From a virus, in the IMG/VR virus record IMGVR_UViG_3300048592_000616, positions 1 through 64,000 of that record: a stretch of 64,000 nt of DNA; one strand, given 5' to 3'. Shown one piece after another: positions 997 to 21,250 of the stretch. The notes beneath the pieces are model-generated. The model had not been told where the DNA came from, searched no databases, and was given only the letters and a program-made list of their open reading frames with translations. Positions within the stretch are counted from its first letter, which is position 1, and each line of letters opens with the position of its first letter. Made by a program: the position numbers and the translations under genes.

Positions 997-1151
997 GCGA
1001 CAACCGCCCCCTAACTTGGTACTACTGGCGCCCCGGCGCGGAAGACAAGTGGTGCTCTTGGCTTGAGACCGACGCGCCGCCCCTGTTTGCGCTGTACGAC
1101 GAGCGGCCGTTGCATGACATCATCCTGAAGCAGATAGCGAAGGAGTGCTAA
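993..1151 (+). CDS. Small hypothetical protein (52 aa, MSDNRPLTWYYW...)
   Basis: ATGA overlap with the upstream stop, AGGAG RBS, fills the gap exactly; too short for the ORF track. Confidence 0.55.
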   Translation: MSDNRPLTWYYWRPGAEDKWCSWLETDAPPLFALYDERPLHDIILKQIAKEC

Positions 1152-4732: not shown

Positions 4733-5384
4733 CGACAAGACGGTAGATCACTTCATTGCCGTCAAACACGCCTGGGCGTGGCAGGCTGTTCGACATCTGC
4801 GGCCGTCACCACGGGTTCTAGAGACAAATGCCGGGTATGGTTGGCTAACAGTAACCTACGGCACGGCCGGAGCGCGGGTGACAGCAATAGACCGCGATGC
4901 TGCCGCAGTCGAGTGTTTGCGCATTAACACAACCGGTTTGGAGACCGTTTGCATCCACGGCGACAACAAGCTTATTGCCGAGCGGCCGCTGGGACCGTTT
5001 GACATCATCGATATCGACGCCACCGCCTCACCGCAACCAATGCTGGATGCGGTTCTCCACCACTACCGGCCGCCAATTCTATTTGTTACCTTCGGCGATG
5101 TGTTGCACTTTCGCCTCAATCGCGGCACCGAACTCAAGTCCGGGTTGGCGCGATATGGCGATACGTGGCGGAACCATCAGCATGAGTTAACACGTGGTGC
5201 ACAGAACTTCGGTGAAGTCATCGGGTTTAATTACATTCGCAGCGCTTGGCCGGATGCCATTTTGTCGGCCTGCCACATCTGGCCGATGACCGGATCGACG
5301 CGGTTGGCCGTTACGCTTGGTACCGATCTTAAGCTGATGACCGTGGATGAGGCGGTTGTGTGGAGCATGGTGCAGCAACAATGA
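4686..5384 (+). CDS. Class I SAM-dependent methyltransferase, Trm1-like
   Basis: GGAGG RBS; motif I VLETNAGYG, AIDRD, FDIIDIDATASP (compare Trm1 FDxIDLDPYGSP). Confidence 0.7.
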   Translation: MRWMKRDLRPVANLYNDKTVDHFIAVKHAWAWQAVRHLRPSPRVLETNAGYGWLTVTYGTAGARVTAIDRDAAAVECLRINTTGLETVCIHGDNKLIAERPLGPFDIIDIDATASPQPMLDAVLHHYRPPILFVTFGDVLHFRLNRGTELKSGLARYGDTWRNHQHELTRGAQNFGEVIGFNYIRSAWPDAILSACHIWPMTGSTRLAVTLGTDLKLMTVDEAVVWSMVQQQ

Positions 5385-6088
5385 TCTACGTGACCCCAGT
5401 GCCACGCGAGCTGCGCGGCCGTCTGACATCTCTGTGCCGCCTCTACGCCTACCCGGCCGAACCGGAAGCCCCGCCCCCGGATGGCTTTGCTATCCTCGAC
5501 AGCGGCGCTTTCGGCCTATCCCAGCGCGGCGAGAAGATGACGCCGCGCTGGATGCGTGGTTTGGCCGAGCACTACCGTCGTCACGGCGGCGAGCGAGTCG
5601 TCTGTATCGCGCCGGACGTGTTCTTGGACCCGGCCGCGACGGTGGCGAACTGGCACTGGTGGCAAAAAGAGCCCGTTGTGACCGTCGCGCCGGTGATCCA
5701 GTTCCGGCACAAGCGCAAGCTGGACGTATACACCGCTATCCAACAAGCCAAAGCCTATGCTCCCGCCCGTCCACCGTTCGTCGCCATATCTAACCCCGGC
5801 CTGCGCGCCGTCGAATGCCGCGACCTGATGCCGGTCATCTGCGCGCAAGTCAGAGCCATCACCGGCGCGAAGTGGCTCCACAACCTCGGCGCGGGCTGGG
5901 ACATGGCCGATATCCACGCCTGGCGCAACCTCGGCTGCTTTGATTCCATCGACTCCATTGCTTACTACACGGCCGCACAAGACGGCATTGACTGGTCCGC
6001 CCGGGGAGCGACCACCTGGCCGGAGCGGGCGGCGCACAATGCATTAGCGGCACAACCAGTTTCCGAAACTGGTCATCAAACCTATTGA
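5381..6088 (+). CDS. tRNA-guanine transglycosylase/DpdA-like TIM-barrel protein
   Basis: ILDSGAF, APDV, PVIQ, HNLGAG and FDSIDS motifs in the TGT-fold order; ATGA-coupled to the methyltransferase. Confidence 0.7.
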   Translation: MIYVTPVPRELRGRLTSLCRLYAYPAEPEAPPPDGFAILDSGAFGLSQRGEKMTPRWMRGLAEHYRRHGGERVVCIAPDVFLDPAATVANWHWWQKEPVVTVAPVIQFRHKRKLDVYTAIQQAKAYAPARPPFVAISNPGLRAVECRDLMPVICAQVRAITGAKWLHNLGAGWDMADIHAWRNLGCFDSIDSIAYYTAAQDGIDWSARGATTWPERAAHNALAAQPVSETGHQTY

Positions 6089-6113
6089 CACTGTACACAC
6101 GGTGGTGTATACT
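6085..6113 (+). promoter_or_regulatory. Sigma70-type promoter
   Basis: TTGACA-17 bp-TATACT, overlapped by a gtacacac...gtgtgtac inverted repeat. Confidence 0.7.
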
Positions 6114-6165
6114 GTGTGTACGGTTAAGCAATCGAGCATGACCGAAGCAAGATAGGAGACACGAA

Positions 6166-6390
6166 ATGCAGGTATACGAGGTTACTTTCAAAGCGAATGA
6201 AGATGGACTCGGCCCGACGCTGAATCTGAAGCTTGATTACGACAAGGGCGAGTGGATGGAGCCGGTTGACACCGACGACGACGGCAATGAAGTATACGCT
6301 ATTTACAGCATATACAGCATTGACCAATTGCTCGACAATGCGCCGAATGTCATCAAGTACATCATCCACGATGAAATAGATGAGGCGTAA
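6166..6390 (+). CDS. Small acidic hypothetical protein
   Basis: AGGAG RBS directly after the promoter. Confidence 0.7.
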   Translation: MQVYEVTFKANEDGLGPTLNLKLDYDKGEWMEPVDTDDDGNEVYAIYSIYSIDQLLDNAPNVIKYIIHDEIDEA

Positions 6391-6403
6391 CAGGAGAAAC
6401 GAA

Positions 6404-6637
6404 ATGGCAAGCAGCGTTTATATTCGAAAAGTTACACAAGGAAAACCGGCCAACCAAACGCTGGTATCGGCCGTTTGTGTCGAAGACGGCGTGGCGGTTG
6501 CACAGTGGTCCTACATCAAGAACGGCAATGGCGGCTTTATCAACGAGCCGCAAGATTTGGTCGGTGCGAGTTTGTCTGAAATTCTCAAGTGTGGCTACCA
6601 TCGAGACATGAGCCTCGCGTTCGAGGACTGGGGCTAA
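6404..6637 (+). CDS. Hypothetical protein
   Basis: AGGAG RBS; TAATG coupling to the next gene. Confidence 0.65.
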   Translation: MASSVYIRKVTQGKPANQTLVSAVCVEDGVAVAQWSYIKNGNGGFINEPQDLVGASLSEILKCGYHRDMSLAFEDWG

Positions 6638-7020
6638 TGGCCCGACCCGACCGATTTTCCATTAGCCTCGGCGCTGACCACGAGCAGCGCCGAGGCGCTT
6701 TGAACGACCTGGCGGCCGATATGCAAGCCATCGGCCGCAACGGGGTGCCGAGCGTCTCGGCGCTCATCTCTGCGCTGGCCGACGCCTACAGCGACCGGCC
6801 GGAGTTGGTGGCGGCCGGGCTGATAGCGCTGCTTGAAGCGGCGCGCGATCCGGCCGAGCGCGACACAGACGGTAACGTTATCCGCGTCCGGTTGTGGCCG
6901 GACCCGGAACGCGAAGACGGCTGGGTCTACGGCGACCCAACAGACTACGACCCGCGCCAAGTGGCGGCGATACGGCCGCCGTATGGCGTGGACTACTATG
7001 ATGAGGATGAAGAAGAATGA
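6637..7020 (+). CDS. Hypothetical protein, possible N-terminal ribbon-helix-helix
   Basis: RFSISL strand followed by helices (VSALISALAD); coupled start. Confidence 0.6.
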   Translation: MARPDRFSISLGADHEQRRGALNDLAADMQAIGRNGVPSVSALISALADAYSDRPELVAAGLIALLEAARDPAERDTDGNVIRVRLWPDPEREDGWVYGDPTDYDPRQVAAIRPPYGVDYYDEDEEE

Positions 7021-7071
7021 CCGGCCCATGTGCGGCCGTGGCCTCGACCGGGCCTGGCGAGTGGCCTCATC

Positions 7072-7090
7072 AGAACACCCGTGCTATAAT
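7072..7090 (+). promoter_or_regulatory. LexA-box-like site overlapping an extended -10
   Basis: AGAAC-accc-GTGCT overlapping TGcTATAAT. Confidence 0.55.
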
Positions 7091-7214
7091 TCTGGTCAAT
7101 AACAAAGCGTCCTGGCGAGTGCGTCAACACTCCCAGGACATGGCGACTGGTATCAGCAGTCACGGAATAGAGTCTAACCGACGCCTCCGCGACTGGCAAC
7201 CGTGGAGGCGTTTC

Positions 7215-7625
7215 ATGTTTTACATTTATGGGTTACGCGAGAAAGGCAGTGATGAGTATCGGTACGTTGGGTCTACGGTCGATATGCAGCGTCGGTGGTG
7301 GGGTCACATCCGAGGCATCGAGAACCCAGAAACGTCCGGGAACCCGCCGCTGTACGAGTGGCTGGGTGGACTATACGGCTTTGAGATGGACTGCCTGGAA
7401 GAAGTCGCCGAAGATCGGCGTGCCAAAGAAGAACGGTGGATCAATAAGCTCCGCGGTGAAGGTCACCGACTATTCAACATCCGGTCCGCGGCCGTTATGG
7501 TGATCGGCATAGCAGATATGTCGAACGAAACCAAGAGGGGTGTCGTCGCGCAGTACCTGGATAAGTTTGGTGACGACCACGATGGGCCTTGGATGAAAGA
7601 GGCCAAATGGGTTTACATCGTCTAA
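7215..7625 (+). CDS. GIY-YIG family endonuclease
   Basis: YIYGL...RYVGST, RRWWGH, KEERWI and LFN motifs. Confidence 0.85.
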   Translation: MFYIYGLREKGSDEYRYVGSTVDMQRRWWGHIRGIENPETSGNPPLYEWLGGLYGFEMDCLEEVAEDRRAKEERWINKLRGEGHRLFNIRSAAVMVIGIADMSNETKRGVVAQYLDKFGDDHDGPWMKEAKWVYIV

Positions 7626-7696
7626 ACCTATACTTGCTCAAATATCCATTATAATAAGTATGACTATCCAAGCAGGGGTGGCTTATCCCCCGCCCT

Positions 7697-8044
7697 ATGG
7701 AGATGACAATGATTCCTGAAAACGATGATGCACCCGACTTTTCGTTTTACGAGATATACAGGCTCGTGTTTGAGCGGCGCAACGCCGCTCACTCTATACC
7801 CGGTGAGATGTATGTCCTGGGCACGTGCCTAGAGGATGCAATGGATCGCTTCAATGCGTATGCCGACCACCGAACGATCAGCACTTGGCGCGGCGAGGTG
7901 GTTGTTATTAGCAGCGTTGGTCGCCTTGGTGACATTGAGGTCATGCACACGCTGGAGACGACGGCCGAAGACGACGCCGCGGATCGACTCCATCCATCCC
8001 CTGCCCGGCCTGCGCCGAAAGGGTCCGCGGTCAGGTCGGGCTAG
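7697..8044 (+). CDS. Hypothetical protein
   Basis: ORF with a GGAG RBS (true start may be 7709); its 3' end runs into a duplicated gene remnant. Confidence 0.55.
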   Translation: MEMTMIPENDDAPDFSFYEIYRLVFERRNAAHSIPGEMYVLGTCLEDAMDRFNAYADHRTISTWRGEVVVISSVGRLGDIEVMHTLETTAEDDAADRLHPSPARPAPKGSAVRSG

Positions 8045-8160
8045 TAATTCGCGTCAACCGCAAGACCGACACCGGCGCGGCCGCAGCGGCATCTACGTCT
8101 GCGACGAGGACATCGCGGGCTGGGCCTTCCTACCTGCGCACATCCCGCCACAAGGAGAAG
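7992..8160 (+). pseudogene. Degenerate copy of the Zn-finger gene 8514..8750
   Basis: 27 bp identical (7992-8018 = 8540-8566) and 17 bp identical (8050-8066 = 8598-8614) at the same 58-bp spacing; no start codon of its own. Confidence 0.7.
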
Positions 8161-8161
8161 C

Positions 8162-8362
8162 ATGAACAATAACTTGCCGGAAATGGTTGGAACCTTTTTT
8201 GTCAACGTGGCGATCATCGGCCTATTGACGGTGCTTCTGTCTGCATTTGCGTGGGGCGTGGTCAACCACCCTGTCCCCACAGCAATTGTCGTAATTGCGG
8301 CGGCCGCGCTCTGGGCGATGATCATTGCCTTTACCCGGCCGCCGAACGATCCAATGATATGA
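8162..8362 (+). CDS. Small two-TM membrane protein
   Basis: AAGGAG RBS; two hydrophobic helices. Confidence 0.65.
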   Translation: MNNNLPEMVGTFFVNVAIIGLLTVLLSAFAWGVVNHPVPTAIVVIAAAALWAMIIAFTRPPNDPMI

Positions 8363-8513
8363 GCACCCCCGTCCCCGCCCCGGCCTGCGCCGACAGCAAC
8401 GCGGCCGCGCCTGCCCCGTCGGGCGCTAGGAGCATCGCTGCCCACACGGAATATACCCGACGTTCGCGACCGAGGAACAGGCGCGACCGTGCCCACAGTA
8501 TACCGGAGAAGTT

Positions 8514-8750
8514 ATGAACACCCAACCGACCCCCACCCTATCCATCCCCTGCCCGGCCTGCGCCGAGAGCGGCCGCGGGCACACCCTGCTCGTCGTCCGC
8601 GTCAACCGCAAGACGGGCACCGAATTCCTGGCCTGCCCGGAGTGGCCGGAGTGCACATATACTCAGCCGATCCCGGAGAGCGTCCTCATGCGCCTCGCCG
8701 GGCAGCCGACGCTGTTCGACACGGCCGCGCCCCAAGGAGAGACCTCATGA
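8514..8750 (+). CDS. Topoisomerase C4-type zinc-ribbon protein
   Basis: CPAC...LVVRVNRKTGTEFLACPEWPECTYT. Confidence 0.8.
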   Translation: MNTQPTPTLSIPCPACAESGRGHTLLVVRVNRKTGTEFLACPEWPECTYTQPIPESVLMRLAGQPTLFDTAAPQGETS

Positions 8751-8944
8751 GCGCCGCCCCCGGCCCCTCAGAGCGAGTCCTGGAGACCGACCGCTGGATC
8801 ATCGACCGGGAAAGCGACGGAACGTATACAGTCGTCGATATGCACGGCCGGTCGGTGCTGACCGGCATCCCGACGATCGAGGACGCCTACGCCGAAACCG
8901 GGCACCCGGCACCGGACGACACCCAGCCGGAGCAAACCCCATGA
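8747..8944 (+). CDS. Hypothetical protein
   Basis: AAGGAG RBS; ATGA overlaps on both sides. Confidence 0.55.
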   Translation: MSAAPGPSERVLETDRWIIDRESDGTYTVVDMHGRSVLTGIPTIEDAYAETGHPAPDDTQPEQTP

Positions 8945-9291
8945 ATGACGACGATAACATCCAGCCCGGCTGCGGCTGCCGCTATGGGCTGATCAGTCTG
9001 CTCATGTTCGCGGCCGCCTTTGGGTTCCTGCTGTTGCTCATCAACGTCGGCCGCGCCGTCTACCCCACCCTCGCGCCGGAGCATCGCAATACGTTCATCT
9101 GGGCGTTCCTGGCCGGGTTGCTCATCTTTGGCGTGGTCAGCGGGGTATCAAAGATCTACGCCGGGCACATGGGTTCAGCCAACGGCAAACAGGTTGTAGC
9201 CGGGCTGGAAGGCGACGGCCGCTCCTGCATCAAGACAGTCATCGGCATCGTCGTGGTCCTGGCGCTCGTGGCGGCCGCGGTGCTGATATGA
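8941..9291 (+). CDS. Three-TM membrane protein
   Basis: Three hydrophobic segments. Confidence 0.65.
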   Translation: MNDDDNIQPGCGCRYGLISLLMFAAAFGFLLLLINVGRAVYPTLAPEHRNTFIWAFLAGLLIFGVVSGVSKIYAGHMGSANGKQVVAGLEGDGRSCIKTVIGIVVVLALVAAAVLI

Positions 9292-9317
9292 CGACAAGCA
9301 GATAACGAGGTTAAAAC

Positions 9318-10493
9318 ATGAAACAAGTAATTGCGACGGAACGAGTTCCGATCAAGCTGTGGCTTGATGACATGGAGGAAGGCGCATTGGCGCAGGCGAG
9401 GAACCTTGCCAACCTGCCGTTTGCCTTCAAGCATATTGCTATCATGCCGGACAGCCACCAGGGGTATGGTATGCCCATTGGCGGCGTTCTGGCGACGCAG
9501 CACTACATCGTCCCCAATGCTGTCGGGGTAGACATCGGCTGCGGCATGTGCGCCGTCAGGACGAACCTGGACCATGTGGAGCGAGACTCGCTTAAGGCTG
9601 TCATGGGGCGCGTGAGGCAGACGGTGCCGGTCGGGTTCAACTCGCACGAGACGGTCCAAAGCATCCCGCTGGAACCGACCGGCAAAGTCAGCGACCTCGT
9701 TCAGCGCCTGTGGGATCAGGCCCTATTCCAGGCCGGGACGCTCGGCGGCGGCAACCACTTCATTGAGTTCCAGGCCGGATCGGACGGCTACGTGTGGATC
9801 ATGATCCATAGTGGATCGCGCGGACTCGGCTTCAAAACGGCCGGGCACTACGCCAAGCTGGCCGAGGAGACCAACACGCGGTACTTCTCATCGGTTGATC
9901 CTAAGCAGGGGTTGTCATTCCTGCCGTTCGACGACGCGGCCGGTCGGCAGTACTTCGAGGACATGAAGTTCTGCACAGAGTACGCCTACCACAACCGCCG
10001 TCTGATGCTGGACAGAATTCAGGAGGCGCTTGCCGAAGTCGTGCCGTCAGTTACGTTCTCGCCGGAGATAAACCTGCCGCACAACTACGCCGCCTTTGAG
10101 AACCACTTCGGGCAGAACGTTATCGTTCATCGGAAGGGCGCGACGCAGGCCAAGGCGGGCCAGGTCGGCATCATCCCCGGCTCACAGGGTTCCGCGTCGT
10201 ACATCGTCGTTGGCAAGGGTAACCCTGACAGCTTTGAGTCCTGTTCGCACGGCGCGGGCCGCCGCATGGGGCGCAACGTGGCGCGAAAGACCTTGGACTT
10301 TGAGGGCGAGACCGAGCGGTTGAATGAGATGGGCGTGCTACACGCCATTCGCGGCGTTGGCGATCTGGATGAGGCCCCCGGTGCATACAAGGACATCGAG
10401 ACGGTGATGCTTAACCAAGAGGACCTGGTCGAGCGCTCGGTTCGGTTGGTGCCGCTGGGCGTCATCAAGAGTTCGGACGGTGGTTATGACTGA
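9318..10493 (+). CDS. rtcB: RtcB family RNA ligase
   Basis: MPDSHQGYGMPIG, VGVDIGCG, GTLGGGNHF, HSGSRG, HN, HRKGA, SCSHGAGR and DEAPGAYK. Confidence 0.95.
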   Translation: MKQVIATERVPIKLWLDDMEEGALAQARNLANLPFAFKHIAIMPDSHQGYGMPIGGVLATQHYIVPNAVGVDIGCGMCAVRTNLDHVERDSLKAVMGRVRQTVPVGFNSHETVQSIPLEPTGKVSDLVQRLWDQALFQAGTLGGGNHFIEFQAGSDGYVWIMIHSGSRGLGFKTAGHYAKLAEETNTRYFSSVDPKQGLSFLPFDDAAGRQYFEDMKFCTEYAYHNRRLMLDRIQEALAEVVPSVTFSPEINLPHNYAAFENHFGQNVIVHRKGATQAKAGQVGIIPGSQGSASYIVVGKGNPDSFESCSHGAGRRMGRNVARKTLDFEGETERLNEMGVLHAIRGVGDLDEAPGAYKDIETVMLNQEDLVERSVRLVPLGVIKSSDGGYD

Positions 10494-11337
10494 CACACCG
10501 GCCGCACAAAGCCGCCAGCTGCGCGAGGTGCGGGTGAGCGTTGACGGCCGTGACGTCGGCATCATCCACCCCACCGACGTCACGATAACGCCACTGCCGG
10601 TGCAGTTCGACGCGGACGTTGCTGACGGTCTTCGGCCGTTCGAGGCGGCCGCGCCGATCTTGGAACCCGTATCGTTTTCAGTGACCAGCCAGATGACGGA
10701 CAAAACGGCTCGCGTGCTGTTTGGTCAAAAGGAGCACAACCCCGTGACTGACTTTATCGACATCACCAACCCGACCGCACTGCAGGCTCACAAAGACGAC
10801 TGGGTCTGCGACGAATACGACCGGCTCTCCGAAGACGTATACGACGCCTATATGGACTCGTTGATCGCCCATATCAGCTACGTCCGCGAGGCTGGGTTGC
10901 GACTGCGCGTGCCCGATCTTCTTTTGCAAGGGCACGATCAAAGCAAGTTCAGCGGCCGAGAGTTCTATGGCTACGCCATGCACTTTCAAGGCGGTGGCGC
11001 ACCGGCCGCGTTCGCGCGGGCATGGCTGCATCACATCCATCACAACCCGCATCATTGGCAGCATTGGCTGTTTGCCGACGGGTTCACGCCGAAAGGCAGC
11101 GACGTCGAGAACGGCGCTGTGCCGATGCCGGGCATGTATGCGCTGGAAATGGTGGCCGACTGGTTGGGCGCTGGCCGGACGTATACGGGATCGTGGGACA
11201 TGACCGAGTGGCTGGAGGTGAACGTGCCGCGCATTCGCGTTCACAGCGCCACGGCCGTTTACCTGGCCAGGATATTGAACGACCTCGGTTACCGTGTGGA
11301 CCCGGCCGCCTTTGGGTCCGCCCTCAAGCAAGGGTAG
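10486..11337 (+). CDS. HD-like metal-binding protein (DUF5662-like) with N-terminal extension
   Basis: HDQSKF, AWLHHIHHNPHHWQHW, EMVADW. Confidence 0.75.
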   Translation: MTDTPAAQSRQLREVRVSVDGRDVGIIHPTDVTITPLPVQFDADVADGLRPFEAAAPILEPVSFSVTSQMTDKTARVLFGQKEHNPVTDFIDITNPTALQAHKDDWVCDEYDRLSEDVYDAYMDSLIAHISYVREAGLRLRVPDLLLQGHDQSKFSGREFYGYAMHFQGGGAPAAFARAWLHHIHHNPHHWQHWLFADGFTPKGSDVENGAVPMPGMYALEMVADWLGAGRTYTGSWDMTEWLEVNVPRIRVHSATAVYLARILNDLGYRVDPAAFGSALKQG

Positions 11338-11340
11338 TCA

Positions 11341-11853
11341 ATGGGACGCTTTTTATTTGCCCTGGTCGGTTGCGTGGGTTTGCTGCTTATTGCGGCTAGT
11401 TCCGTTATCGCCATGCCCGCCGACCCGCCGCCCCCGCCGCCCGCGCGGCCGCCGGGGCTGTTCATCACCGTCTACGACTGGTCGCTGGGCGGCATCAATT
11501 GCAATGAGGACTGCGGGCAGACCTCGCTGACGACGACCGGGCCGGAGTTGTTCGGGTGGACGGCCGCTTGCCCCGTCGCGTGGTTAGGGCACATCAACAC
11601 GACCGTCGTGACGATCTGGGGCCAGGAATACTGGTGTATTGATGCGTTCGGCGACGAAGTCAACCAGCGGCTGACGACGGTCAACGGCCGCCGGGTGTAT
11701 CGCATCGACATCGCCGACAGCCCGCCAGCCGCGCACCCGTGGAACCAGGAGTGGGTGCCGTGGGGCGACTGGTCGAAGGAGTGGCGGCCGATGGCTGAAT
11801 TCAACGAAATTCGCGAAGCGCGACGGGCGGCGACGGCCGTCCTGGGAGACTGA
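11341..11853 (+). CDS. Secreted protein, 3D/RlpA-like domain
   Basis: Signal peptide, Pro linker, ITVYD..GGINC, TAAC, CIDAFG, RIDI. Confidence 0.5.
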   Translation: MGRFLFALVGCVGLLLIAASSVIAMPADPPPPPPARPPGLFITVYDWSLGGINCNEDCGQTSLTTTGPELFGWTAACPVAWLGHINTTVVTIWGQEYWCIDAFGDEVNQRLTTVNGRRVYRIDIADSPPAAHPWNQEWVPWGDWSKEWRPMAEFNEIREARRAATAVLGD

Positions 11854-11859
11854 ACCGGG

Positions 11860-12093
11860 ATGACGGCTCCCGCATTCCCCGACCAGCCGCCGCCCGTGGG
11901 CGAGAGCGACGTGGTCCTGCCAGTGGTGGTGGCCGCGCTGACAGCCCGCGCCGAACAGGGGCGCGTCAAGTACGGCACCTACCTGCGGGTCCGCAACGGC
12001 CGCGACCCGTTGATCGACGCCTGGCAAGAAGCGGCCGACCTGCTGATGTACCTGACCCAGGCCATCATGGAGCGCGACGGTTCGCTGCCGTGA
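11860..12093 (+). CDS. MazG-like/all-alpha NTP pyrophosphohydrolase-like small protein
   Basis: GRVKYGTYL..NGRDPLIDAWQEAADLLMY. Confidence 0.55.
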   Translation: MTAPAFPDQPPPVGESDVVLPVVVAALTARAEQGRVKYGTYLRVRNGRDPLIDAWQEAADLLMYLTQAIMERDGSLP

Positions 12094-12142
12094 CAACGAC
12101 GACGCTTTGCGCTATCGTTGCGGCCACACGGAGGTAGACGCG

Positions 12143-12715
12143 ATGAGACTCAAACTGGTTGGAGTTGCTTTGATGATGTTGGCTGTGCTGGCCGCGTGCG
12201 GCGGCGCGGCCGATGGCGAGGCGTCGGCCGTGGCCACGGTGCCGCCAACGGTTACCGCGCGGCCGACGCCGACCGCGACGCCCGTGCGGCTGCCGGAGAC
12301 GGCCGACGCGCTATGCCGGTGGATCGGCAACCAAATTCTGGTAGAGCCTGACCGGCTGACCGAGTGCGCGGTGGATGACGAACGTGCTTCCAGCGCCTGG
12401 CTGCGGATCGCTTATCGCATGGATCGCGGCGCGATGGACCGGGCGGCGCTGCTGACGGCGGCCGAGGTGTCCGAAATTCTGCACACCCTGACCGAGGTCG
12501 GATACCAGGACTATGCCCGCGTCGAGATCGTCGCCACCTACCCCACCAAGGACAAGTTCGGCAACACCGAGGAGACGGCCGCCTTCCGGGCCGACTGGGC
12601 ACTCTCGACGCTGGACAAAGTGAACTGGGCGGGCATCGACTTCCCGGCGCTGCTGGACCTATCGTCGCCGCCGCGCCTGGAGATGTCTGACGCCTTCGCG
12701 GCCGCCATCCGCTGA
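12143..12715 (+). CDS. Lipoprotein
   Basis: GGAGG RBS; lipobox LAAC; Pro/Thr linker; DKFGN motif. Confidence 0.75.
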   Translation: MRLKLVGVALMMLAVLAACGGAADGEASAVATVPPTVTARPTPTATPVRLPETADALCRWIGNQILVEPDRLTECAVDDERASSAWLRIAYRMDRGAMDRAALLTAAEVSEILHTLTEVGYQDYARVEIVATYPTKDKFGNTEETAAFRADWALSTLDKVNWAGIDFPALLDLSSPPRLEMSDAFAAAIR

Positions 12716-12837
12716 CCCGACTCCCCCCACCCTGCCCCAGGCCGTTTCGCTGTCGCTGAAAATTAGAACATATGTACGCTGCCGGTTTGGCGGCCCGGCC
12801 GCGTTGCGCATCGTTGCCACCAGTTTCCACCAGTTGG

Positions 12838-12886
12838 TTGACAGGCCGTCGCGTTATATGTTATGATGTGGTCATACCAAACGAAC
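12838..12886 (+). promoter_or_regulatory. Promoter family copy A with palindromic operator
   Basis: TTGACA-18-TATGAT with TG extension; TATGA-tgtgg-TCATA; ends in aaacgaac. Confidence 0.75.
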
Positions 12887-12928
12887 AGGGCAGCGCCCCG
12901 CTAGGGCCGAAAGGCAAGGAGACCTGAG

Positions 12929-13171
12929 ATGCAAAACCCAACCGTAGCTTCTGACTTGAGCCGAACCAACGCCGAGCTAACCGTCCGCGCCATGCGGCAC
13001 GCCTCCCCGATGGTCAGCCCGCGAGTATTCGCGGAGGGCAACGAGGAGGACACTTACCGGGTGGACGTGATAGGGTACATGAGCACGACCGGTCACCATA
13101 GCATCGCCATGTGGGCGAAGGGCTTCACCACCGCCCTGGAGATCGCGGCGACGGACATGGTGGCGAAATGA
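12929..13171 (+). CDS. Hypothetical protein
   Basis: AAGGAG RBS after promoter A. Confidence 0.65.
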   Translation: MQNPTVASDLSRTNAELTVRAMRHASPMVSPRVFAEGNEEDTYRVDVIGYMSTTGHHSIAMWAKGFTTALEIAATDMVAK

Positions 13172-13413
13172 GCCAGCTATTGCACGAGGTCGAGCGGGTC
13201 TTTGCCCGCGTGGTCAACAAGGAGATCGGCGGCGGCAACATCGAGGTCTCGATGAACGGCCTGGCCGACGGCCGGATGCAGGTCTGCATATGCGGCCCGC
13301 TGGCCGACGTAGAGGCGGCCGCGCCGGTGCTGGCCGAGACGGGGCTGGCGCTCCTCGACGAGACCGTATTCCCCGACGATCCCGAATTCAAGTACATGCG
13401 CTGGGCTAAGTAG
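13168..13413 (+). CDS. Hypothetical protein
   Basis: ATGA coupling. Confidence 0.6.
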   Translation: MSQLLHEVERVFARVVNKEIGGGNIEVSMNGLADGRMQVCICGPLADVEAAAPVLAETGLALLDETVFPDDPEFKYMRWAK

Positions 13414-13437
13414 GGACCGGCGCGCAAAGGAGACACC

Positions 13438-13695
13438 GTGAGCAGCATTGATCGATACATCGAGGTTTGGAAGGACGGCGACCCGGAGGATACCACCGAG
13501 TGGCTGGTGCTGCTGATGCAAGGCGGCCAGCTGCCGGAGCCGCCGGATGCAGTCGATGTGCTGGGCACCTTCCCCACCCTCAATGAGGCCCGCGCCTTCG
13601 CCGGGCGCGAGGCGGCCGAGCGTGGGCTGGAGGTATTCGAGGAGGACTTGGGCGGCGGGTATCCCCCGGCCGCGTGGGAGGCGCGGCCGTCATGA
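13438..13695 (+). CDS. Hypothetical protein
   Basis: AAGGAG RBS, GTG start. Confidence 0.6.
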   Translation: MSSIDRYIEVWKDGDPEDTTEWLVLLMQGGQLPEPPDAVDVLGTFPTLNEARAFAGREAAERGLEVFEEDLGGGYPPAAWEARPS

Positions 13696-14075
13696 GTCTT
13701 TGCGACTTCCACCAGTGCGACCTGTGTATCTATGTGTCCCCAGCGGGCATTGAGTGCCACGTGGCGGCCGATCGGCGGGTGCAAGAGATAGGACCGGAGC
13801 CGCCCCTGCCCAGCCTGACGGCCGATGACCACGAGTGGGCCGAGTGGCGTCGCCTTTTCCACAAGTACGCCAATGAGATATTCTCGGGCGAGACCCAGCC
13901 CATCGGCGGTCCGCGCGACGGGGAACACCGCACCTTCCAGACGTGGGCCGACTTGCTGGCCTATGTGGGCGACGTGGCGGCCGATGGGTACCGCGTGCCG
14001 GACTGGGTGGTTGGGACTATCCAGAGGGAGGTGGGCAATTCGCCGCAAGCCGCACCGGCCGATAAAATACCCTAG
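13692..14075 (+). CDS. Hypothetical phage protein
   Basis: ATGA coupling; GYRVPDW motif; followed by a hairpin. Confidence 0.6.
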   Translation: MSLCDFHQCDLCIYVSPAGIECHVAADRRVQEIGPEPPLPSLTADDHEWAEWRRLFHKYANEIFSGETQPIGGPRDGEHRTFQTWADLLAYVGDVAADGYRVPDWVVGTIQREVGNSPQAAPADKIP

Positions 14076-14094
14076 CAGACTACTAACTCAAGGC

Positions 14095-14126
14095 CAGAAG
14101 GGCGAGACCGATGTCTCGCCTTTCTG
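14095..14126 (+). terminator. Terminator-like hairpin
   Basis: cagaagggcgagac-cgat-gtctcgcctttctg. Confidence 0.6.
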
Positions 14127-14251
14127 CATCCAGGTCGCGGTTGGGATGTATGACTTTCCGCAACAACCCGACCCTGTGTAATTTTGGCCCGTTTTTTACA
14201 ATGACCACCGCGGCCGTTGTAGCCGAATACACTGCCTGCCCGGTTTGCGTC

Positions 14252-14280
14252 TTGACGGGGCGCGGGCTTTGCGGTAGTGT
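14252..14280 (+). promoter_or_regulatory. Sigma70-type promoter for the repeat RNA
   Basis: TTGACG (14252-57), 17 bp, TAGTGT (14275-80). Confidence 0.65.
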
Positions 14281-14299
14281 ATCGGAGGACTAACCAAGC

Positions 14300-14374
14300 A
14301 AGGCTTGGCATGGCCAGGCAAGGCGGGGCCAGGCCTGGCGGGGCGAGGCCCGGCCTGGCGAGGCCCGGCATGGC
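14300..14374 (+). repeat. Pentanucleotide array with invariant GGC and variable dinucleotide
   Basis: GGC at 14302, 14307 ... 14372 (15 copies, exact 5-nt period); NN = aa,tt,at,ca,aa,gg,ca,ct,gg,ga,cc,ct,ga,cc,at. Confidence 0.95.
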
Positions 14375-14378
14375 AGGG

Positions 14379-14410
14379 AAAAAGGGGACGGCTTTCTGCC
14401 GTCCCCTTTT
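14379..14410. terminator. Bidirectional intrinsic terminator
   Basis: aaaaaggggacggc-tttct-gccgtcccctttt between the repeat RNA and the convergent endolysin. Confidence 0.85.
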
Positions 14411-14416
14411 CGTTTC

Positions 14417-17400
14417 TCACTCCGCGCAGGTGATGACCTGGCGGCGGTTGTCCGGCCGCTGGCCCGGCGCGTGGGCCTCGCTGATCTCGCTGCGCTGGCC
14501 GTCGGCCTTCGTCCAGGTCACCAGCCCGTACATCCGCGAGAAGGTCCACGTCTCCTCGACGCGGCCGTTGGGCAGCAGCCACTGCAAGAGGATGCAGTCC
14601 CCAACGAATATCCCATTGACCATCATTGCCTTCTGCGCGGCCGCCAGGCGGATCGTTGACGGCTGGCGGCGCTCCTCGGTCGTTTGGCAGTCGGCGATCC
14701 GCTGCCAGCGCACGAGCGGGTTACGCGGGAACGTCTCCCCCACGGCCATCCGGCGCGGTGCCCAGACGCTGCCATAGACCCCCGGCGCGCCATAGAGCGT
14801 GTACATCATCCCGCCGCCCGGCGACGTGTCGCGGCCGCGATAGATGGCCTTGTCGTCCGCGCCGAAATGCTCCCACTCGGCCGATAGCTCGTTGCCCTTC
14901 GTCAGGTAGTACCAGCCCGGCCGGTGCGGGTCGCGCTGGGTCTGGTGGCGCGCCTGGCTGCCGCTGCTGTGGCGCACCTCGAAGAGCGGCCCACGGCCGT
15001 CCGGGCCGAGCATCCCGGTCATGTAGGGCAGGAGGTCGATCTTGGTCGGGTCGGGTGGCTGCGGCTCCGGCTTCGGCGGCTGAGGCTTGGGTGGCGTCGG
15101 CGTTGGCGTCGGTGGTTTCGGCGCGGGCAGCGCGTCCTCCGGCCCGACGACGCGGACGGCGTCCCACTCCCCCACCGGCGCGTAGTAGACCAGCGTCTCC
15201 CCGGCCCGGCCGCCCGCGCGGCGGTAGGCATAGCTCACGCCGTCGATGACCTCGCGCTGCTCATCGGAGAGCGGATAGAGACCGTCCTCCAGCATCGCCG
15301 CCTGCAAAGCGAAGGTCGGCGTGTTGGCGATCCCCGGCGCGGCCGTGCCCAGCCGCCACATTGTCTCGGCCAGCGTCGGCGGCCTCGGCTCCGGCACGCC
15401 GCGCGGGATGAGGTACGCGGCCAGGTCGTCCGCCGTGCCGTTGAAGCGGTTCAGGTCGATCCGGGCGCTTGACGCGCCATAGCTCGGCCCGTGGCCGTCG
15501 TTGGCGTACTGCCAGAAGGTCCAGCCCCGGCCGCTGGCCCACGGCTCCGGCACGAGCGGCCGCGTGCCCTTGGTCCAGTTGGCGATCCATAGGTCGAAGG
15601 CCGCGCCCCATTTCGGCGCGCCCAGGGCCGAGCGCCAGTAGCTGTAGTTGGTATAGAGGATCGGCAGCCGGTCGATACCCATCTCGTCGAGGCGTACTTG
15701 CAGGCGCTCCAGGAACTCCAACACAAACGCCGCCCGCTCGGTCACGGTCAGGCCGTTGAAGTTCCCGTCCTCCAGGTCCAGCACCGGCGGTAGGTCGCAG
15801 CCGTGCCGCTCGATGACGGCCGCGAACGTCTCCACCTGCTCCTTGGGCGGATCGAAGAAGTGCAGGTAGTGGTAGAAGCCATAGGGTAGCCCGGCCGCCA
15901 TCGCCGCCGGGGCATACTCGTCCACCCGCTCGTCCTGGTGCTTGCCATACGACGCGCGGATGAAGGCGAAGTCAACCTTGGCGGCCGCCTTGCCAAAGTC
16001 CATCGCCCCCTGCCACTTGGAGACGTCGATCCCGATGACCTCGCCGCCCGGCTCCGGCTTCGGCGGTTCGGGCTTCGGCGGTTCCGGCGCGGGCGGTTCG
16101 GGTTCGGTGACGGCCGCGCGCAGGGACCAGCCGTCCAGGAAGAAATTGTTGGAAATGCCCCACTCGGCCGACATGTGGACGGCCAGCTTGAGCGGCCCGC
16201 CGCCGTGGGTGAAGGCGGTCGATATCTCGCGGTAGACCGGCCCGGTCGCGGCCGCAGGCCAGATGTCCAGCGGCCCGGCGACGGCCTGGTCGTTGACCTT
16301 GAGCGTATAGCGCGCCGAGTTGGTCTCCACCCGGTAGTCGCGCTTCTTGTCCGTCATGCGGTAGAAGTCCAGCCAGCCGCGCCACGTGAACACGTACCGA
16401 CCAGCCGGTAGGTCGGGGAACTCCTGGACCAGGCGCGCCCAGAACGGTCGCCCGCCCGCGAACAGCTTGTAACACCACTGCCCATCGCGGATGAACCGCG
16501 CCGCCTCGTCGGCCGGTAGCTGCGCGGCCGACTTGTGGACGCCCTCCGGCTCGCCATACGCCTGGCCGGAGATCGGCGACTTGCCCGTATTCCAGGCGAA
16601 GCGCCAGCCGCGCGGCTGCTGGCTGGACTGGCTGATGTCGTCCCAGCCGCCCTCAAAGCCGGGGTTGGCGAGTAGCTCGGCCGTGCCCGGCGTGGGTGGC
16701 TTCGGCGGGTCCACCGGCGACGGCGTTGGCGCGTTGTCTTTGATGCGGTCCAGCAGGGCAACCTCGACGGCCGTGCCGGAGATGTCCCACTCCTTCCACA
16801 CGCCCACGCTCCCCACCGTAAACACGGCCGCGCCGACCACATAGTCATCCTCGCGGATGCGCCGGTCATACCAGGCCAGCATGTCGGCGTACTTCTGTGG
16901 GTCCAGACCCATCGCCCGCCATGACCCCACCGGCGCGCCCTTCGGCGTCACCGAGGCCACATCGTCACACCCGGCCTCGGTGATGATGAGCTGCGTGTCC
17001 CCCAGTCCGGCCGGGGCCAACACCGTGTCCCACACGTAGCGATAGCGCAGGGCAGCCCAGCCCCAGGGATAAGAGCGGTCAGGGCGGCCGTGCCACACAT
17101 CGGCCGTCAGGTTGCCGTTGGCGTCCACCTGTTTCCAGCCTACCCCATAGTCGGCCTCGTAGCCCATGTACTCGTGGAGGGCGATGTAGTGGCCGTTGTC
17201 GCGGGCGTGGCGAACGGCCGGGAGCAGATGAGGCCAGATGTCCATGCTTGGCGTGCCCACGGCGAAGCTGAAGTTGGCCCGCTTCTTGCCGATGGACTCA
17301 TACAGCTTCATCATCTCGATGCAGTAGGCGCTGTACCAGGCCGCCTCATTCGCGTTGTCCGGGGGTATCTCGTTGTCATCCTCCCACACGTCAATGCGCG

Positions 17401-17701
17401 GGTTGGCGGTGTAGCGGTTGACCCGCGGCCGGTTAGCCCCGGCGTAGATGTCGGTCTGCGCCGCGAACCGCACCGCGGCCGCGGCCTTCGGCGTCTCGCC
17501 GCGGTGCATCAGCGCCTTCCAGTCGGTCAACCCCAGGGCGTCGTCCTGCTGGTCCAGCTTGCCGACAACGAGCGGACCGGCCGGGACAGACGATGACGCC
17601 CCCAGCCCCATCGGGTCGAACTTGTAGAGCACCGGCCCGGCCCCGATCCACTTTGCCAGACCGGGCGAACCGATAAAGTGCGGCCCCAGCTTACTTGACA
17701 T
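14417..17701 (-). CDS. Multidomain endolysin (GH25 lysozyme, N-terminal GH-like barrel, CBM-like domain)
   Basis: GIDVSKWQG, YGFYHY, PPVLDLE, LWIA, WTFWQY and IDLN; LHEY/ITEAG and LLANPGFE domains; Pro-rich linkers; GGAGG RBS before ATG 17701. Confidence 0.85.
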   Translation of the reverse strand: MSSKLGPHFIGSPGLAKWIGAGPVLYKFDPMGLGASSSVPAGPLVVGKLDQQDDALGLTDWKALMHRGETPKAAAAVRFAAQTDIYAGANRPRVNRYTANPRIDVWEDDNEIPPDNANEAAWYSAYCIEMMKLYESIGKKRANFSFAVGTPSMDIWPHLLPAVRHARDNGHYIALHEYMGYEADYGVGWKQVDANGNLTADVWHGRPDRSYPWGWAALRYRYVWDTVLAPAGLGDTQLIITEAGCDDVASVTPKGAPVGSWRAMGLDPQKYADMLAWYDRRIREDDYVVGAAVFTVGSVGVWKEWDISGTAVEVALLDRIKDNAPTPSPVDPPKPPTPGTAELLANPGFEGGWDDISQSSQQPRGWRFAWNTGKSPISGQAYGEPEGVHKSAAQLPADEAARFIRDGQWCYKLFAGGRPFWARLVQEFPDLPAGRYVFTWRGWLDFYRMTDKKRDYRVETNSARYTLKVNDQAVAGPLDIWPAAATGPVYREISTAFTHGGGPLKLAVHMSAEWGISNNFFLDGWSLRAAVTEPEPPAPEPPKPEPPKPEPGGEVIGIDVSKWQGAMDFGKAAAKVDFAFIRASYGKHQDERVDEYAPAAMAAGLPYGFYHYLHFFDPPKEQVETFAAVIERHGCDLPPVLDLEDGNFNGLTVTERAAFVLEFLERLQVRLDEMGIDRLPILYTNYSYWRSALGAPKWGAAFDLWIANWTKGTRPLVPEPWASGRGWTFWQYANDGHGPSYGASSARIDLNRFNGTADDLAAYLIPRGVPEPRPPTLAETMWRLGTAAPGIANTPTFALQAAMLEDGLYPLSDEQREVIDGVSYAYRRAGGRAGETLVYYAPVGEWDAVRVVGPEDALPAPKPPTPTPTPPKPQPPKPEPQPPDPTKIDLLPYMTGMLGPDGRGPLFEVRHSSGSQARHQTQRDPHRPGWYYLTKGNELSAEWEHFGADDKAIYRGRDTSPGGGMMYTLYGAPGVYGSVWAPRRMAVGETFPRNPLVRWQRIADCQTTEERRQPSTIRLAAAQKAMMVNGIFVGDCILLQWLLPNGRVEETWTFSRMYGLVTWTKADGQRSEISEAHAPGQRPDNRRQVITCAE

Positions 17702-17816
17702 GGCATCCTCCCACGGCCGCTGCGAGGCGGCCACTGTCTCCCCCTGCTCCCGTCGTCAATTCCCGTCTGTCGCTCGAATTCATGACATCCACCTCCGGCC
17801 GATATTGTATCACAAC

Positions 17817-17855
17817 GGTTGCGGATGGTTGCGAAGTCGGCCGGTTGGTTGCGGA
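17817..17855. promoter_or_regulatory. GGTTGC-N4-GGTTGC direct-repeat site upstream of the endolysin -10
   Basis: ggttgc-ggat-ggttgc...; minus-strand TGaTACAAT at about 17804-17812; similar over about 39 bp to 44379-44417. Confidence 0.6.
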
Positions 17856-17947
17856 TTTGGGCAGCGGCCGCCCGGCACATGAACCTTACCTATACGAAGG
17901 AACAGACCGCAACCGGCGCGAACCGGGAAGTTGATGGTTGCAGTTGG

Positions 17948-17994
17948 TTGACAAGGGGTGCAGGTTATGGTATGATACTGTCATACTAAACGAC
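17948..17994 (+). promoter_or_regulatory. Promoter family copy B with palindromic operator
   Basis: TTGACA-17-TATGAT; GTATGA-tactg-TCATAC. Confidence 0.8.
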
Positions 17995-18020
17995 AGGCAC
18001 CCGCCCTAAAGGAGACCGAG

Positions 18021-19255: not shown

Positions 19256-19628
19256 GGACGGCACGCTCCTACTGGTCTTGTTGGCCCTGGCGCTGGCCGG
19301 GCTGGGGATGATGAGCTTCTCGGCCCGCGGCGCGGCGCAGGACAGCTACACCTACGAGTCGCTCCCCAAGTCCGGCTACCAGATGGTCATAACCTCGCGC
19401 ACGACCGCGGCGGCCGATGACGGCGGCGGTCGCCTGTTGCTGTTGGGCGTGGGGCTGATGGCGTCGGTCGTCGTGTTTCTCGGCGGCTCGCTGTTGGCGA
19501 TGAACGGCGGGGCGAAGGTCTTGAAGGAGTTTCGGCTGACGCGCCGCGCCCAGCGCCGGTCGTCCCGCGCCCCGGCCGCGCCCGGTCGCCTGCCCGCCCT
19601 GCCGTCGCTGTACGAGGACACACCATGA
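19248..19628 (+). CDS. Membrane protein
   Basis: Two hydrophobic helices; coupled to neighbours. Confidence 0.65.
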   Translation: MRKDGTLLLVLLALALAGLGMMSFSARGAAQDSYTYESLPKSGYQMVITSRTTAAADDGGGRLLLLGVGLMASVVVFLGGSLLAMNGGAKVLKEFRLTRRAQRRSSRAPAAPGRLPALPSLYEDTP

Positions 19629-21250
19629 CGCGCAGCCGCCTCCTCGCGCTACTGACGTTGTTGGCGCTGTTGGGCGTCGGCTGCGGCGGCGCGGCGACAA
19701 CCACTCCCGGCCAACAGCCGCCGATGGTCTTCTACTCCGACCAGGCGGCCGTCGATGCCCAGGCGACGCTGGCGGTCTACGCTTTCCAGGTGACGGCCGT
19801 CGCCCAGGCCACCCAGGAGGCCCAGCAGCGGGCCGTGGAGGCGACCAGGGCTGTCCAGCAGGCAACGGCCGACGCGCAGGCCATCGCGGCCCAACAAGCC
19901 ACCGCCCAGGCCGTCCAGGCCACGTCTACGGCGCAGTCTATGGCGATGGTCGCCACGGCGACGGCCGATGCGCTGTCGGCGCAGGCCACGGTGCAGGCGC
20001 TGACCATCGACGCCACGCGACAGTCGGCGGCCATCGTGGCCACGGCGTCGGCCGAGCAGCGCGCCGCCGATGCCGAGCAGCAGCTGGTGGCGGCCGAGAT
20101 GGCGCGCCTCCAGGTCGAGCAGCAGGCCCGGCAGGCGGCCGTTGAGCGGGCGCGCATGCTGAACCAGATGTTGCCCTGGGGCATTGCGGCGACGGTGCTG
20201 GCGATGCTGGCCGTCGTGGGCGCGGTGCTGTGGCGGATCATCACCCAGGCCCGGCCGCAGCAGGCGGGCGATATGTGGCTGGCCTATGTGGACGGACGCC
20301 CGCACGTCATCGACGTCACGCCGTCGGCCGGGCGGCTGAGTTCGCCCCGCCCGCAGCTCCCGGCGACGACGGGGACCGACAACGACGCCGAGGCGGTGCC
20401 GCTGCTGCGGCCGTCGCGCGGTCATGCCATGTTCGCCGGGCCGACGGGATCGGGCAAGTCCACGGCCATGCGCTACTTCCTGGAGCCGCGGCCGCACGTG
20501 GTCGTCATCGACCCGCACAGTATGCCCGGCGACTGGCCCGGCGCGACGGTGATCGGCGCGGGCCGGAACTTCGACCAGATACAGGGCTACATGCAGTCGA
20601 TGCAGTCGCTGCTGGCCGACCGCTATGAGCAACGCGCCGAGGGCGTGCGCGACTTTGAGAGTATCACCGTCGCCGTGGACGAGATGCCCGCCATCGTGGC
20701 CGCGCTCGGCCGGTCCATCGAGGACATGTGGAAGGAGTGGCTGCGCGAGGGGCGCAAGGTGGGCCTGGACCTGCTCATCTCCACCCAGTCCCTGCGCGTC
20801 AAGACGCTGGGCATTGAGGGCGAGGGCGACCTGCGCGAAAATTTCGCGCTTGTGCTGGCCCTGGGGCAGACGGCGCTACGCGAGTTCCCGGCCCAGGCCC
20901 AGGGGATGCGCTGGCCCGCCGTGATGTACACCCCGCAAAGCGGCCCGCGCCCGGTCATCATCCCGCAAATGCCGGAGACGGCCGTCTCGGTCGCCAACGG
21001 TAACGGCCACACCCGCCCGCCCGTCCGCGAGTGGCCGGTGATCTTGCCCGCCCCGACCAACGACCCCAACAACGTCACGCCGGAAATGCGTCGGCAGATC
21101 GTCCGGCTGGGCCAGATGGGCCACTCCATCTCGGCCATCCAGCGCGCCGTCTTCCCGACCTACTCCAGCAGCGGCGGCCATGCCTTTGCCCGCATCAAGG
21201 ACATCCTGCAGGCCGAAGGCGTTCTGGAGCCGTCCTCGTCGGCCGACTGA
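19625..21250 (+). CDS. Membrane-anchored FtsK/HerA-superfamily ATPase
   Basis: Lipobox-like LGVGC, A/T/Q-rich stalk, TM helix, Walker A GPTGSGKST, VIDPH, VAVDE, REGRKVG, STQS, C-terminal HTH-like segment. Confidence 0.8.
   Translation: MTRSRLLALLTLLALLGVGCGGAATTTPGQQPPMVFYSDQAAVDAQATLAVYAFQVTAVAQATQEAQQRAVEATRAVQQATADAQAIAAQQATAQAVQATSTAQSMAMVATATADALSAQATVQALTIDATRQSAAIVATASAEQRAADAEQQLVAAEMARLQVEQQARQAAVERARMLNQMLPWGIAATVLAMLAVVGAVLWRIITQARPQQAGDMWLAYVDGRPHVIDVTPSAGRLSSPRPQLPATTGTDNDAEAVPLLRPSRGHAMFAGPTGSGKSTAMRYFLEPRPHVVVIDPHSMPGDWPGATVIGAGRNFDQIQGYMQSMQSLLADRYEQRAEGVRDFESITVAVDEMPAIVAALGRSIEDMWKEWLREGRKVGLDLLISTQSLRVKTLGIEGEGDLRENFALVLALGQTALREFPAQAQGMRWPAVMYTPQSGPRPVIIPQMPETAVSVANGNGHTRPPVREWPVILPAPTNDPNNVTPEMRRQIVRLGQMGHSISAIQRAVFPTYSSSGGHAFARIKDILQAEGVLEPSSSAD

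Follow-up and report, generated by a model that had tools for sequence, protein, structure and literature searches.

What does a guide RNA gene do in a phage in which the protein that should hold the guide is not found? This question is raised by a small cassette in the IMG/VR virus record IMGVR_UViG_3300048592_000616, a 73,423-nt contig with 65% G+C, which is described as 'linear' and for which CheckV estimates a completeness of 72%; the stretch that was analysed, referred to as the window, comprises the first 64,000 nt. The cassette comprises a promoter-like site, a short leader, 15 units in which an invariant GGC alternates with a variable dinucleotide, and a putative terminator (Table 1). 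Judged by its sequence, the array unit is a gene for a guide RNA (vrRNA) of the VIPR systems. On balance, it is probably a solo vrRNA gene which uses the Vipr protein supplied in trans to silence the vipr gene of a rival.

Published vrRNAs consist of 9–16 YNNGG repeats and a 3' tail and are mostly phage-borne; seven types of VIPR are distinguished, some of which have just one vrRNA (PMC13142463). Each GGY is bound by a single Vipr protomer of roughly 20 kDa; the target code lies in the NN bases, which pair with DNA so that every third base is skipped (PMC13142463; bioRxiv 10.64898/2026.04.26.720927). A vrRNA is expected to be a small RNA of about 100 nt which co-purifies with Vipr. The initial annotation of the locus, which pointed to the VIPR systems, had taken GGC as a scaffold bound by one subunit per unit and the dinucleotides as the targeting code; this agrees with the description in PMC13142463, and the unit fits published vrRNAs in repeat form, number of repeats, phage location and size. 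The promoter, the leader, the 15 GGC units with their dinucleotides and the terminator that it listed are all found in place when the sequence is read directly. The dinucleotides are, in order, AA, TT, AT, CA, AA, GG, CA, CT, GG, GA, CC, CT, GA, CC and AT, that is nine different ones among the 15. The published caller, which reads GGY and then NN (bioRxiv 10.64898/2026.10.15.759431), gives 15 units with 30 informative bases and the code TT, AT, CA, AA, GG, CA, CT, GG, GA, CC, CT, GA, CC, AT and AG. On both strands of the window the array is the sole run of at least five exact NNGGY units, and in the whole contig it is the sole run of more than five units (the runner-up has five matching units of eight). 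Among 200 first-order Markov genomes the longest exact run is of three units in 82, four in 108, five in seven and six in three.

Both strands have open reading frames (ORFs) of 99–166 aa that overlap the array. The invariant GGC at a 5-nt period rotates through the three codon phases, and therefore no protein constraint lies behind the pattern. Rfam, at its gathering thresholds, has no match in the whole window. A CRISPR array consists of direct repeats of about 23–50 nt between unique spacers; the array of the cassette has a 5-nt period and no repeat–spacer structure. Concerning the ends of the unit, the hairpin region (14372–14415) folds at -25.5 kcal/mol (z = -4.3) and none of 200 shuffles is as stable, which bears out the strong terminator claimed for it, although a consensus scanner makes no terminator call at the cassette; too few T's are left behind the hairpin once the A and T runs are assigned to the stem. 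Together with the A and T runs on either side, the hairpin could serve the convergent minus-strand gene as terminator as well, and it may be simply a terminator and not the 3' tail of a vrRNA. The same scanner makes no promoter call at 14252–14280, because the -10 element agrees with TATAAT at three of six positions only.

Table 1. Positions in the window of the cassette, its parts and the other features discussed in the text
Feature	Position	Strand	Remarks
-35-like element TTGACG	14252–14257	+	Read from the sequence
-10-like element TAGTGT	14275–14280	+	17-nt spacer after TTGACG; putative promoter function
Leader	14287–14299	+	From spacing only, assuming a start about 7 nt past the -10 element
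Repeat array, 15 exact NN-GGC units	14300–14374	+	Read from the sequence
Degenerate 16th unit AGGGA	14375–14379	+	Closes the array
3' tail and putative intrinsic terminator	14380–14410	+	A run, hairpin, T run
Hairpin	14384–14392 / 14398–14406	+	9-bp G+C-rich stem, loop TTTCT, then TTTT
Whole cassette (promoter, leader, repeat array, terminator)	14202–14418	+	About 217 bp; missing in the relative from run X3
127-aa Cys-rich ORF	13692–14075	+	Directly upstream of the cassette; N-terminal Cys/His cluster conserved
csf1-cas11-csf2-csf3 module	1783–4732		PADLOC: Csf1 2e-23, Cas11 8e-10, Csf2 3.8e-57, Csf3 8e-36
242-aa ORF	5360–6088		Shared with record G001
RtcB RNA ligase, then DUF5662 protein	9318–11337		RtcB: Pfam E value 3e-107
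541-aa P-loop protein	19625–21250		Weak AAA_22 and PADLOC mad8 matches
DUF7666 ORF	415–996		
12-nt tandem repeat	782–937		13 copies, 91% matches; inside the DUF7666 ORF
88-nt direct repeat	7987–8074 and 8535–8622		81% identity; 548 nt apart

The Vipr family was gathered from the flanks of arrays. A scan of IMG/VR for at least ten GGCNN units yields at least 135 stretches; among the matches listed, a homologue of a protein of about 190 aa is found within 2 kb of the array in 57 of the 68 stretches of at least 3 kb, and beside the array in 24 of the 67 shorter loci (<3 kb), which makes at least 81 such loci in total. An alignment of 41 array-adjacent proteins (A2) matches the PDB entry 36pp, 'SUSP1 Vipr protein', over the full length with an E value of 4e-38; the array-adjacent proteins are therefore the Vipr family, and their profile has no match among Pfam families. 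Blind clustering of array-flanking ORFs merged those running into the arrays into two low-complexity clusters and did not isolate Vipr, and hidden Markov models of the small array-flanking clusters find nothing meaningful in the contig. With the Vipr profile, the best E value in the six-frame translations of the contig is 0.3–0.5, compared with 7e-46 for the control record G001, and a second profile search of all 73,423 nt with the same alignment gives no match, the control being found at 3.9e-43. There is also no recognisable vap gene on the contig, where the 127-aa ORF adjacent to the cassette matches no family or fold. The contig thus lacks the arrangement of a complete VIPR system, in which vipr lies beside the guide.

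Ten other array-bearing records are also without a Vipr match anywhere (L012, L023, L027, L038, L050, L056, L064, L068, L070 and L079), and for two of these the completeness is given as 100%. It follows that guide-only phages exist and are not rare in this sample; they seem to be common outside enterobacterial phages too.

The code of the guide was scored by mismatches over 515 kb of fetched VIPR loci with skips of 0–3 bases. With the one-base skip the best site agrees with 24 of 32 bases, against a maximum of 23 in 100 unit shuffles; in 1000 unit shuffles a score of at least 24 is reached four times, and the guide read backwards scores 20. The gapped search that had been proposed for the locus leads to the 5' region of vipr genes, which the code matches above shuffled controls; it brings up no perfect target. 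The other gap lengths proposed with it (skips 0, 2 and 3) reach 20–21 of 32 and give no signal; among them is the contiguous, no-skip reading (skip 0), which, as scored over the contig and the 515 kb of fetched loci, is no better than controls. All the top code matches in the 515 kb are found in vipr genes, in frame and at one site, and none in arrays or tails. Each of the seven vipr ORFs scoring at least 20 is matched at the same N-terminal motif, in frame, and the peptides at this site are MLMHNGRLANPLDPAT, LLMHNGEMADPLNPMT and LLMHNGRMSDPCDPMT. The footprint of the guide on vipr reads x-L-M-H-N-G-x-L-x-D-P-L-D-P-M; it is in frame and wobble-aligned, with codon positions 1 and 2 spelled. The matches are densest in the 3' units of the guide, and in an alignment the motif's His falls on H17 of SUSP1 Vipr; according to bioRxiv 10.64898/2026.04.26.720927, R-loop formation begins at the 3' units and H17 reads scaffold G1.

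Based on the published scorer and 72 vipr genes gathered blind to the guide, the best identity is 24/30 (0.80), which is reached in one of 2000 permuted-base trials and in none of 200 Markov surrogates. The best vipr target is that of L154, with 26/30 (0.87). Looking at the relatives of the N-terminus of the L015 Vipr, all 120 allow 20–26 of 32 bases (control maximum 23) and 118 of them are matched at residue offsets 12–27; this clade includes proteins from Piscicoccus intestinalis and a Streptomyces strain. The best site in four isolated actinophages or prophages is again the N-terminal vipr motif, in frame, but with 19–21 of 32. The scoring does not yield vipr for just any array, since 12 of 14 other solo arrays treated in the same way have p above 0.1, the remaining two being L050 (p about 0.04) and L068 (p about 0.005). 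The contig itself contains no self-target at three mismatches or fewer, and its best sites (19–20 of 32 at skips 0–3) are no better than those of shuffled guides. The array of L068 has 12 units, is also solo and matches a vipr gene at 20/24; it lies in record G042, a provirus rated complete, which has no vipr anywhere and is a second guide-only record.

The cassette sits between convergent genes: a run of small plus-strand ORFs ends at 14075, and the minus-strand gene for a GH25-domain protein of 1,105 aa ends at 14417, its stop codon (14417–14419) abutting the right edge of the cassette. Positions 13600–14800 were compared with contigs from four metagenome runs of sludge or wastewater. The locus with the cassette is found in runs X1 and X2. 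A 6,508-nt relative in run X3 matches 14063–14201 and 14419–14800 with about 87–95% identity and has 31 different letters in place of 14202–14418; it also has 92 nt in place of 13619–14062, so that most of the 127-aa ORF is gone. Since the relative skips exactly 14202–14418, the unit of promoter, array and terminator is a discrete presence/absence difference. Runs X1 and X2 contain a further contig (5,998 nt and 3,880 nt, respectively, at about four times the depth) with a multi-guide array, one stretch of which is identical at 41 of 43 positions to 14330–14372 (region compared: 14322–14372), the part in which the code reads Q-L-G-D-P-L-D-P-M. Among the fetched IMG/VR arrays the best comparable match to this part is 34/40, and no other array of the same specificity is found in the fetched loci. 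A near-identical guide may thus sit in a full VIPR locus in the same sludge samples.

Parts of the cassette are also found in other VIPR loci. The array–vipr unit of L154 is directly preceded by the same promoter layout (TTGACA, 17 nt, TAGAGT), arrays in G001 and L015 likewise end in AGGGA, and arrays in L154 and L009 end in AAGGA. The leaders have nothing in common beyond the -35 element when aligned. The cassette tail aligns with the first part of the tail of L015 array 2, and there are no close homologues from which conservation could be judged. In L015 (1950–2290, minus strand), a provirus record, both arrays before vipr are preceded by hairpins with a T-loop-like GGTTCGACTCC; the second array is also followed by a GGTTCGACTCC hairpin, and this last one lies inside an acceptor-like stem. 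These hairpins resemble tRNA-like minihelices and might serve as processing signals. The tail of L019 resembles that of L015, and ARAGORN finds no tRNA genes in L015 or L019.

We infer that transcription would start at the cassette's own promoter and stop at its own terminator, yielding an RNA of about 125 nt. One Vipr protomer would hold each GGC, leaving the 15 NN pairs free to pair with DNA in which every third base is skipped. As there is no vipr on the contig, Vipr must come in trans, most likely from a rival phage or prophage that shares the cell. The code spells a conserved N-terminal stretch of Vipr, and so the likeliest function is to turn the rival's Vipr on the rival's vipr: the rival's own protein would be loaded with the guide and parked on the early vipr codons, and the rival VIPR system would be shut down.

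Such guides have been described in another group of phages. According to bioRxiv 10.64898/2026.10.15.759431, 346 VIPR-null enterobacterial phages carry one or two solo vrRNAs, some solo vrRNAs aim at early vipr codons, nearly 90% of the vipr-targeting guides are wobble-aligned, and the enterobacterial solo guides arose by deletion of a 1,114-bp vipr-vap1 segment. As far as that account goes, the cassette has in common with the SUSP1-family solo vrRNAs the GGY/NN guide in a phage without a vipr gene, the match to early vipr codons with the skipped base on the wobble position, and an identity which reaches or exceeds the 0.8 used in that study. The differences concern the setting and the tail: the SUSP1-family phages infect Enterobacteriaceae, whereas the cassette is on a 65% G+C contig from activated sludge without a close isolated-phage relative; their guides lie in deletion scars, whereas this one is a self-contained cassette between unrelated convergent genes and is missing in a relative; and the SUSP1-clade tail is a pseudoknot, whereas the cassette tail is a plain hairpin. 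Compared with canonical VIPR as published, the repeat form, unit number, predicted transcript size, phage carriage and one-base-skip code are the same, but there the guide array lies beside protein genes and here a single guide is found, with no vipr and no recognisable vap. The locus does not reveal a new kind of system; it differs in phage lineage, in its self-contained cassette position and in its simple hairpin tail.

VIPR itself was described in 2026, and guide-only anti-vipr phages have so far been reported for enterobacterial SUSP1-like phages only, as predictions. The full-text literature from 2025 on, among the matches listed, deals with this system in three preprints and one language-model paper only and contains no report of solo vrRNAs in high-G+C or actinobacterial phages, and supplements may hold one. 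The same tactic would now be found in an unrelated high-G+C phage from activated sludge, with a targeted clade which includes actinobacterial (Piscicoccus, Streptomyces) Vipr; this speaks for a general tactic, with guides that can be gained or lost as small modules. A concrete guide–target pair is provided by the cassette guide and codons 1–30 of a vipr gene of the L154 or L015 type. In virus-borne mini-CRISPR arrays and RNA anti-CRISPRs, a mobile element likewise has the RNA part only and depends on a foreign effector, as is proposed here; they differ from the cassette in having CRISPR repeats and not 5-nt GGY/NN units, another protein family and a contiguous code. Phage 'dummy' CRISPR RNAs are mentioned in the Discussion of bioRxiv 10.64898/2026.10.15.759431.

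Several results weigh against a guide aimed at a rival's vipr. Exact scans of viral, genome and metagenome collections with 14 units and with the 3' 11 units give no perfect target, a scan with three units left open also has no match, and the best real sites mismatch at 4 to 7 of the 30 informative bases; in PMC13142463, by comparison, most top natural VIPR targets match perfectly and perturbed NN pairing abolished silencing. The 120 best-scoring relatives by the whole Vipr profile allow at most 19 of 32 bases, which is inside the control range (18–23), and the guide fits one part of the Vipr family only. A relaxed pattern of 21 guide bases is found at six places in IMG/VR (four distinct sequences), all six in vipr ORFs, in frame and beside arrays, with L154 as the best of them, but the pattern left open those positions which had been seen to vary in vipr, so that the six of six is partly circular and not fully independent. 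The -10 element of the cassette is weak, and any fitness advantage of such guides is putative even in the published cases (bioRxiv 10.64898/2026.10.15.759431). Finally, as the contig is incomplete, a vipr gene may lie on the missing part.

This last point leads to the alternative which survives best, namely that the cassette encodes an ordinary distal vrRNA of a complete VIPR system, whose own vipr (and vap) lie on the missing part of the genome, and which possibly is still directed against a rival's vipr. The CheckV rating and the 'linear' state of the record leave room for it, and VIPR-positive phages also carry guides against the VIPR components of rivals (bioRxiv 10.64898/2026.10.15.759431). 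We nevertheless regard it as unlikely: the usual distance of vipr from its array is up to 2 kb, as counted above for the larger loci, whereas no vipr is found within 14 kb upstream or 59 kb downstream of the cassette; the ten array records without vipr, the two complete ones included, show that guide-only phages exist; and a vipr of the targeted clade in the phage's own genome would be self-targeted unless recoded.

The failure to find a perfect target in the collections scanned would also suit a sponge or decoy without a DNA target of its own, which would soak up the rival's Vipr (15 protomers per molecule) or divert it to harmless sites, its resemblance to vipr being secondary. A pure sponge would have no need of a match to vipr which keeps the reading frame, puts the skipped base on the wobble position and exceeds three kinds of null, and this role is improbable. 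The absence of vipr and the identities of just 0.80–0.87 to the best known targets could be explained, too, by decay, if the cassette were what is left of an earlier VIPR locus and no longer had a function. There is little chance of this, as the GGC scaffold is undamaged in all 15 units, the promoter-like site and the terminator are likewise preserved and lie close against the array, and the presence/absence difference is a clean indel between otherwise unrelated convergent genes and not a scar inside a VIPR locus. A solo guide against a rival's vipr is the reading that we consider the best.

The contig also contains a type IV-B-like csf module, and csf2 and csf3 had been noted in the initial annotation as the only RAMP genes of the window. 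NCBIfam and PADLOC identify both (the NCBIfam matches to the csf genes fall below its cut-offs) and the Vipr profile adds none. As in type IV-B CRISPR-Cas described in PMC7937560, csf1, cas11, csf2 and csf3 are present without an array: there are no CRISPR-like repeats near the module, neither at 4600–9400 nor in the tandem-repeat list of the window. The phage thus carries the module without a CRISPR array, cas6, dinG or a detectable cysH; a cysH-like gene is an associated feature of type IV-B (PMC7937560), and the neighbouring ORFs tested at 415–9291 have no Pfam or NCBIfam match to one. The sole viral relative of the module is in G001, a complete 100-kb record, with 42–65% amino-acid identity; the module and the 242-aa ORF are common to both, and little else in the 60 kb compared. 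In G001, a ParB-like ORF lies between two arrays, and behind the arrays comes a 187-aa ORF, RAMP-like at its N-terminus and rich in glycine at its C-terminus, whose homologues are those counted above beside arrays; it is the canonical Vipr of G001, directly behind the arrays and 16 kb from the csf genes. The Skermania phage SPI1 has a Csf2-like protein with 33% identity to that of the contig, which is the sole part in common, and contains no array in the 49.7 kb examined, which lie beyond its first 6 kb. Csf2 matches are found in none of 49 other array-bearing viral records among the matches listed, G001 being found as the control. Nothing found here links the csf genes to the array RNA.

It is accordingly very improbable that the phage's own array-less Csf complex (Csf1, Cas11, Csf2/Cas7, Csf3/Cas5) uses the cassette RNA as its guide, for although csf2 and csf3 are the sole RAMP genes of the contig and lack CRISPR-like repeats, the natural guide RNA of type IV-B complexes is given as unknown in PMC7937560, and G001 carries GGY/NN arrays as well, the arrays of G001 have their own Vipr, SPI1 and the 49 records separate Csf2 from arrays, the 6-nt register of Csf2 (deduced from a passage which does not state it) would not suit a 5-nt repeat, and the code is already explained by vipr genes. 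If true, the loading of a GGY/NN RNA by Csf would be a living link between VIPR guides and CRISPR-Cas effectors.

The 127-aa ORF upstream is a possible companion of the cassette. Its predicted model has a pLDDT (predicted local distance difference test) of 82.5. No match is found in Pfam, PHROG, NCBIfam or PADLOC; concerning its fold, Foldseek against PDB gives nothing at an E value of 0.001 or less (all above 1), VIA reaches a Z of 4.4 at best among 48,161 chains, and ESM Atlas gives TM scores of up to 0.38. Its relatives are two weak 30-residue matches in IMG/VR, and a large protein collection contains two proteins, one of which is the ORF protein itself. The ORF was also considered as a hidden Vipr and rejected, as no family or fold link to RAMP proteins turned up.

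The contig is the genome of a tailed phage, with terminase, portal-like, protease, major tail, tape-measure and distal tail genes, as well as genes for DnaB, ParA, RusA, methyltransferases and RtcB. Among isolated phages, megablast of 11000–18000 finds no close relative and blastn of 13400–14450 no relative, and the search with the portal-like protein gives three distant records only. The RtcB RNA ligase and the DUF5662 protein which follows it may together counter tRNA- or RNA-cleaving defences as a repair module. The 541-aa P-loop protein has a relative with 31% identity (157 aa aligned, E value 4e-12) about 3 kb from the arrays of L046. The 12-nt tandem repeat, CCGCCGCATGGG, yields a four-residue coding repeat in the DUF7666 ORF. 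The two copies of the 88-nt direct repeat lie in a stretch of lower G+C, poor in ORFs, between the csf module and rtcB.

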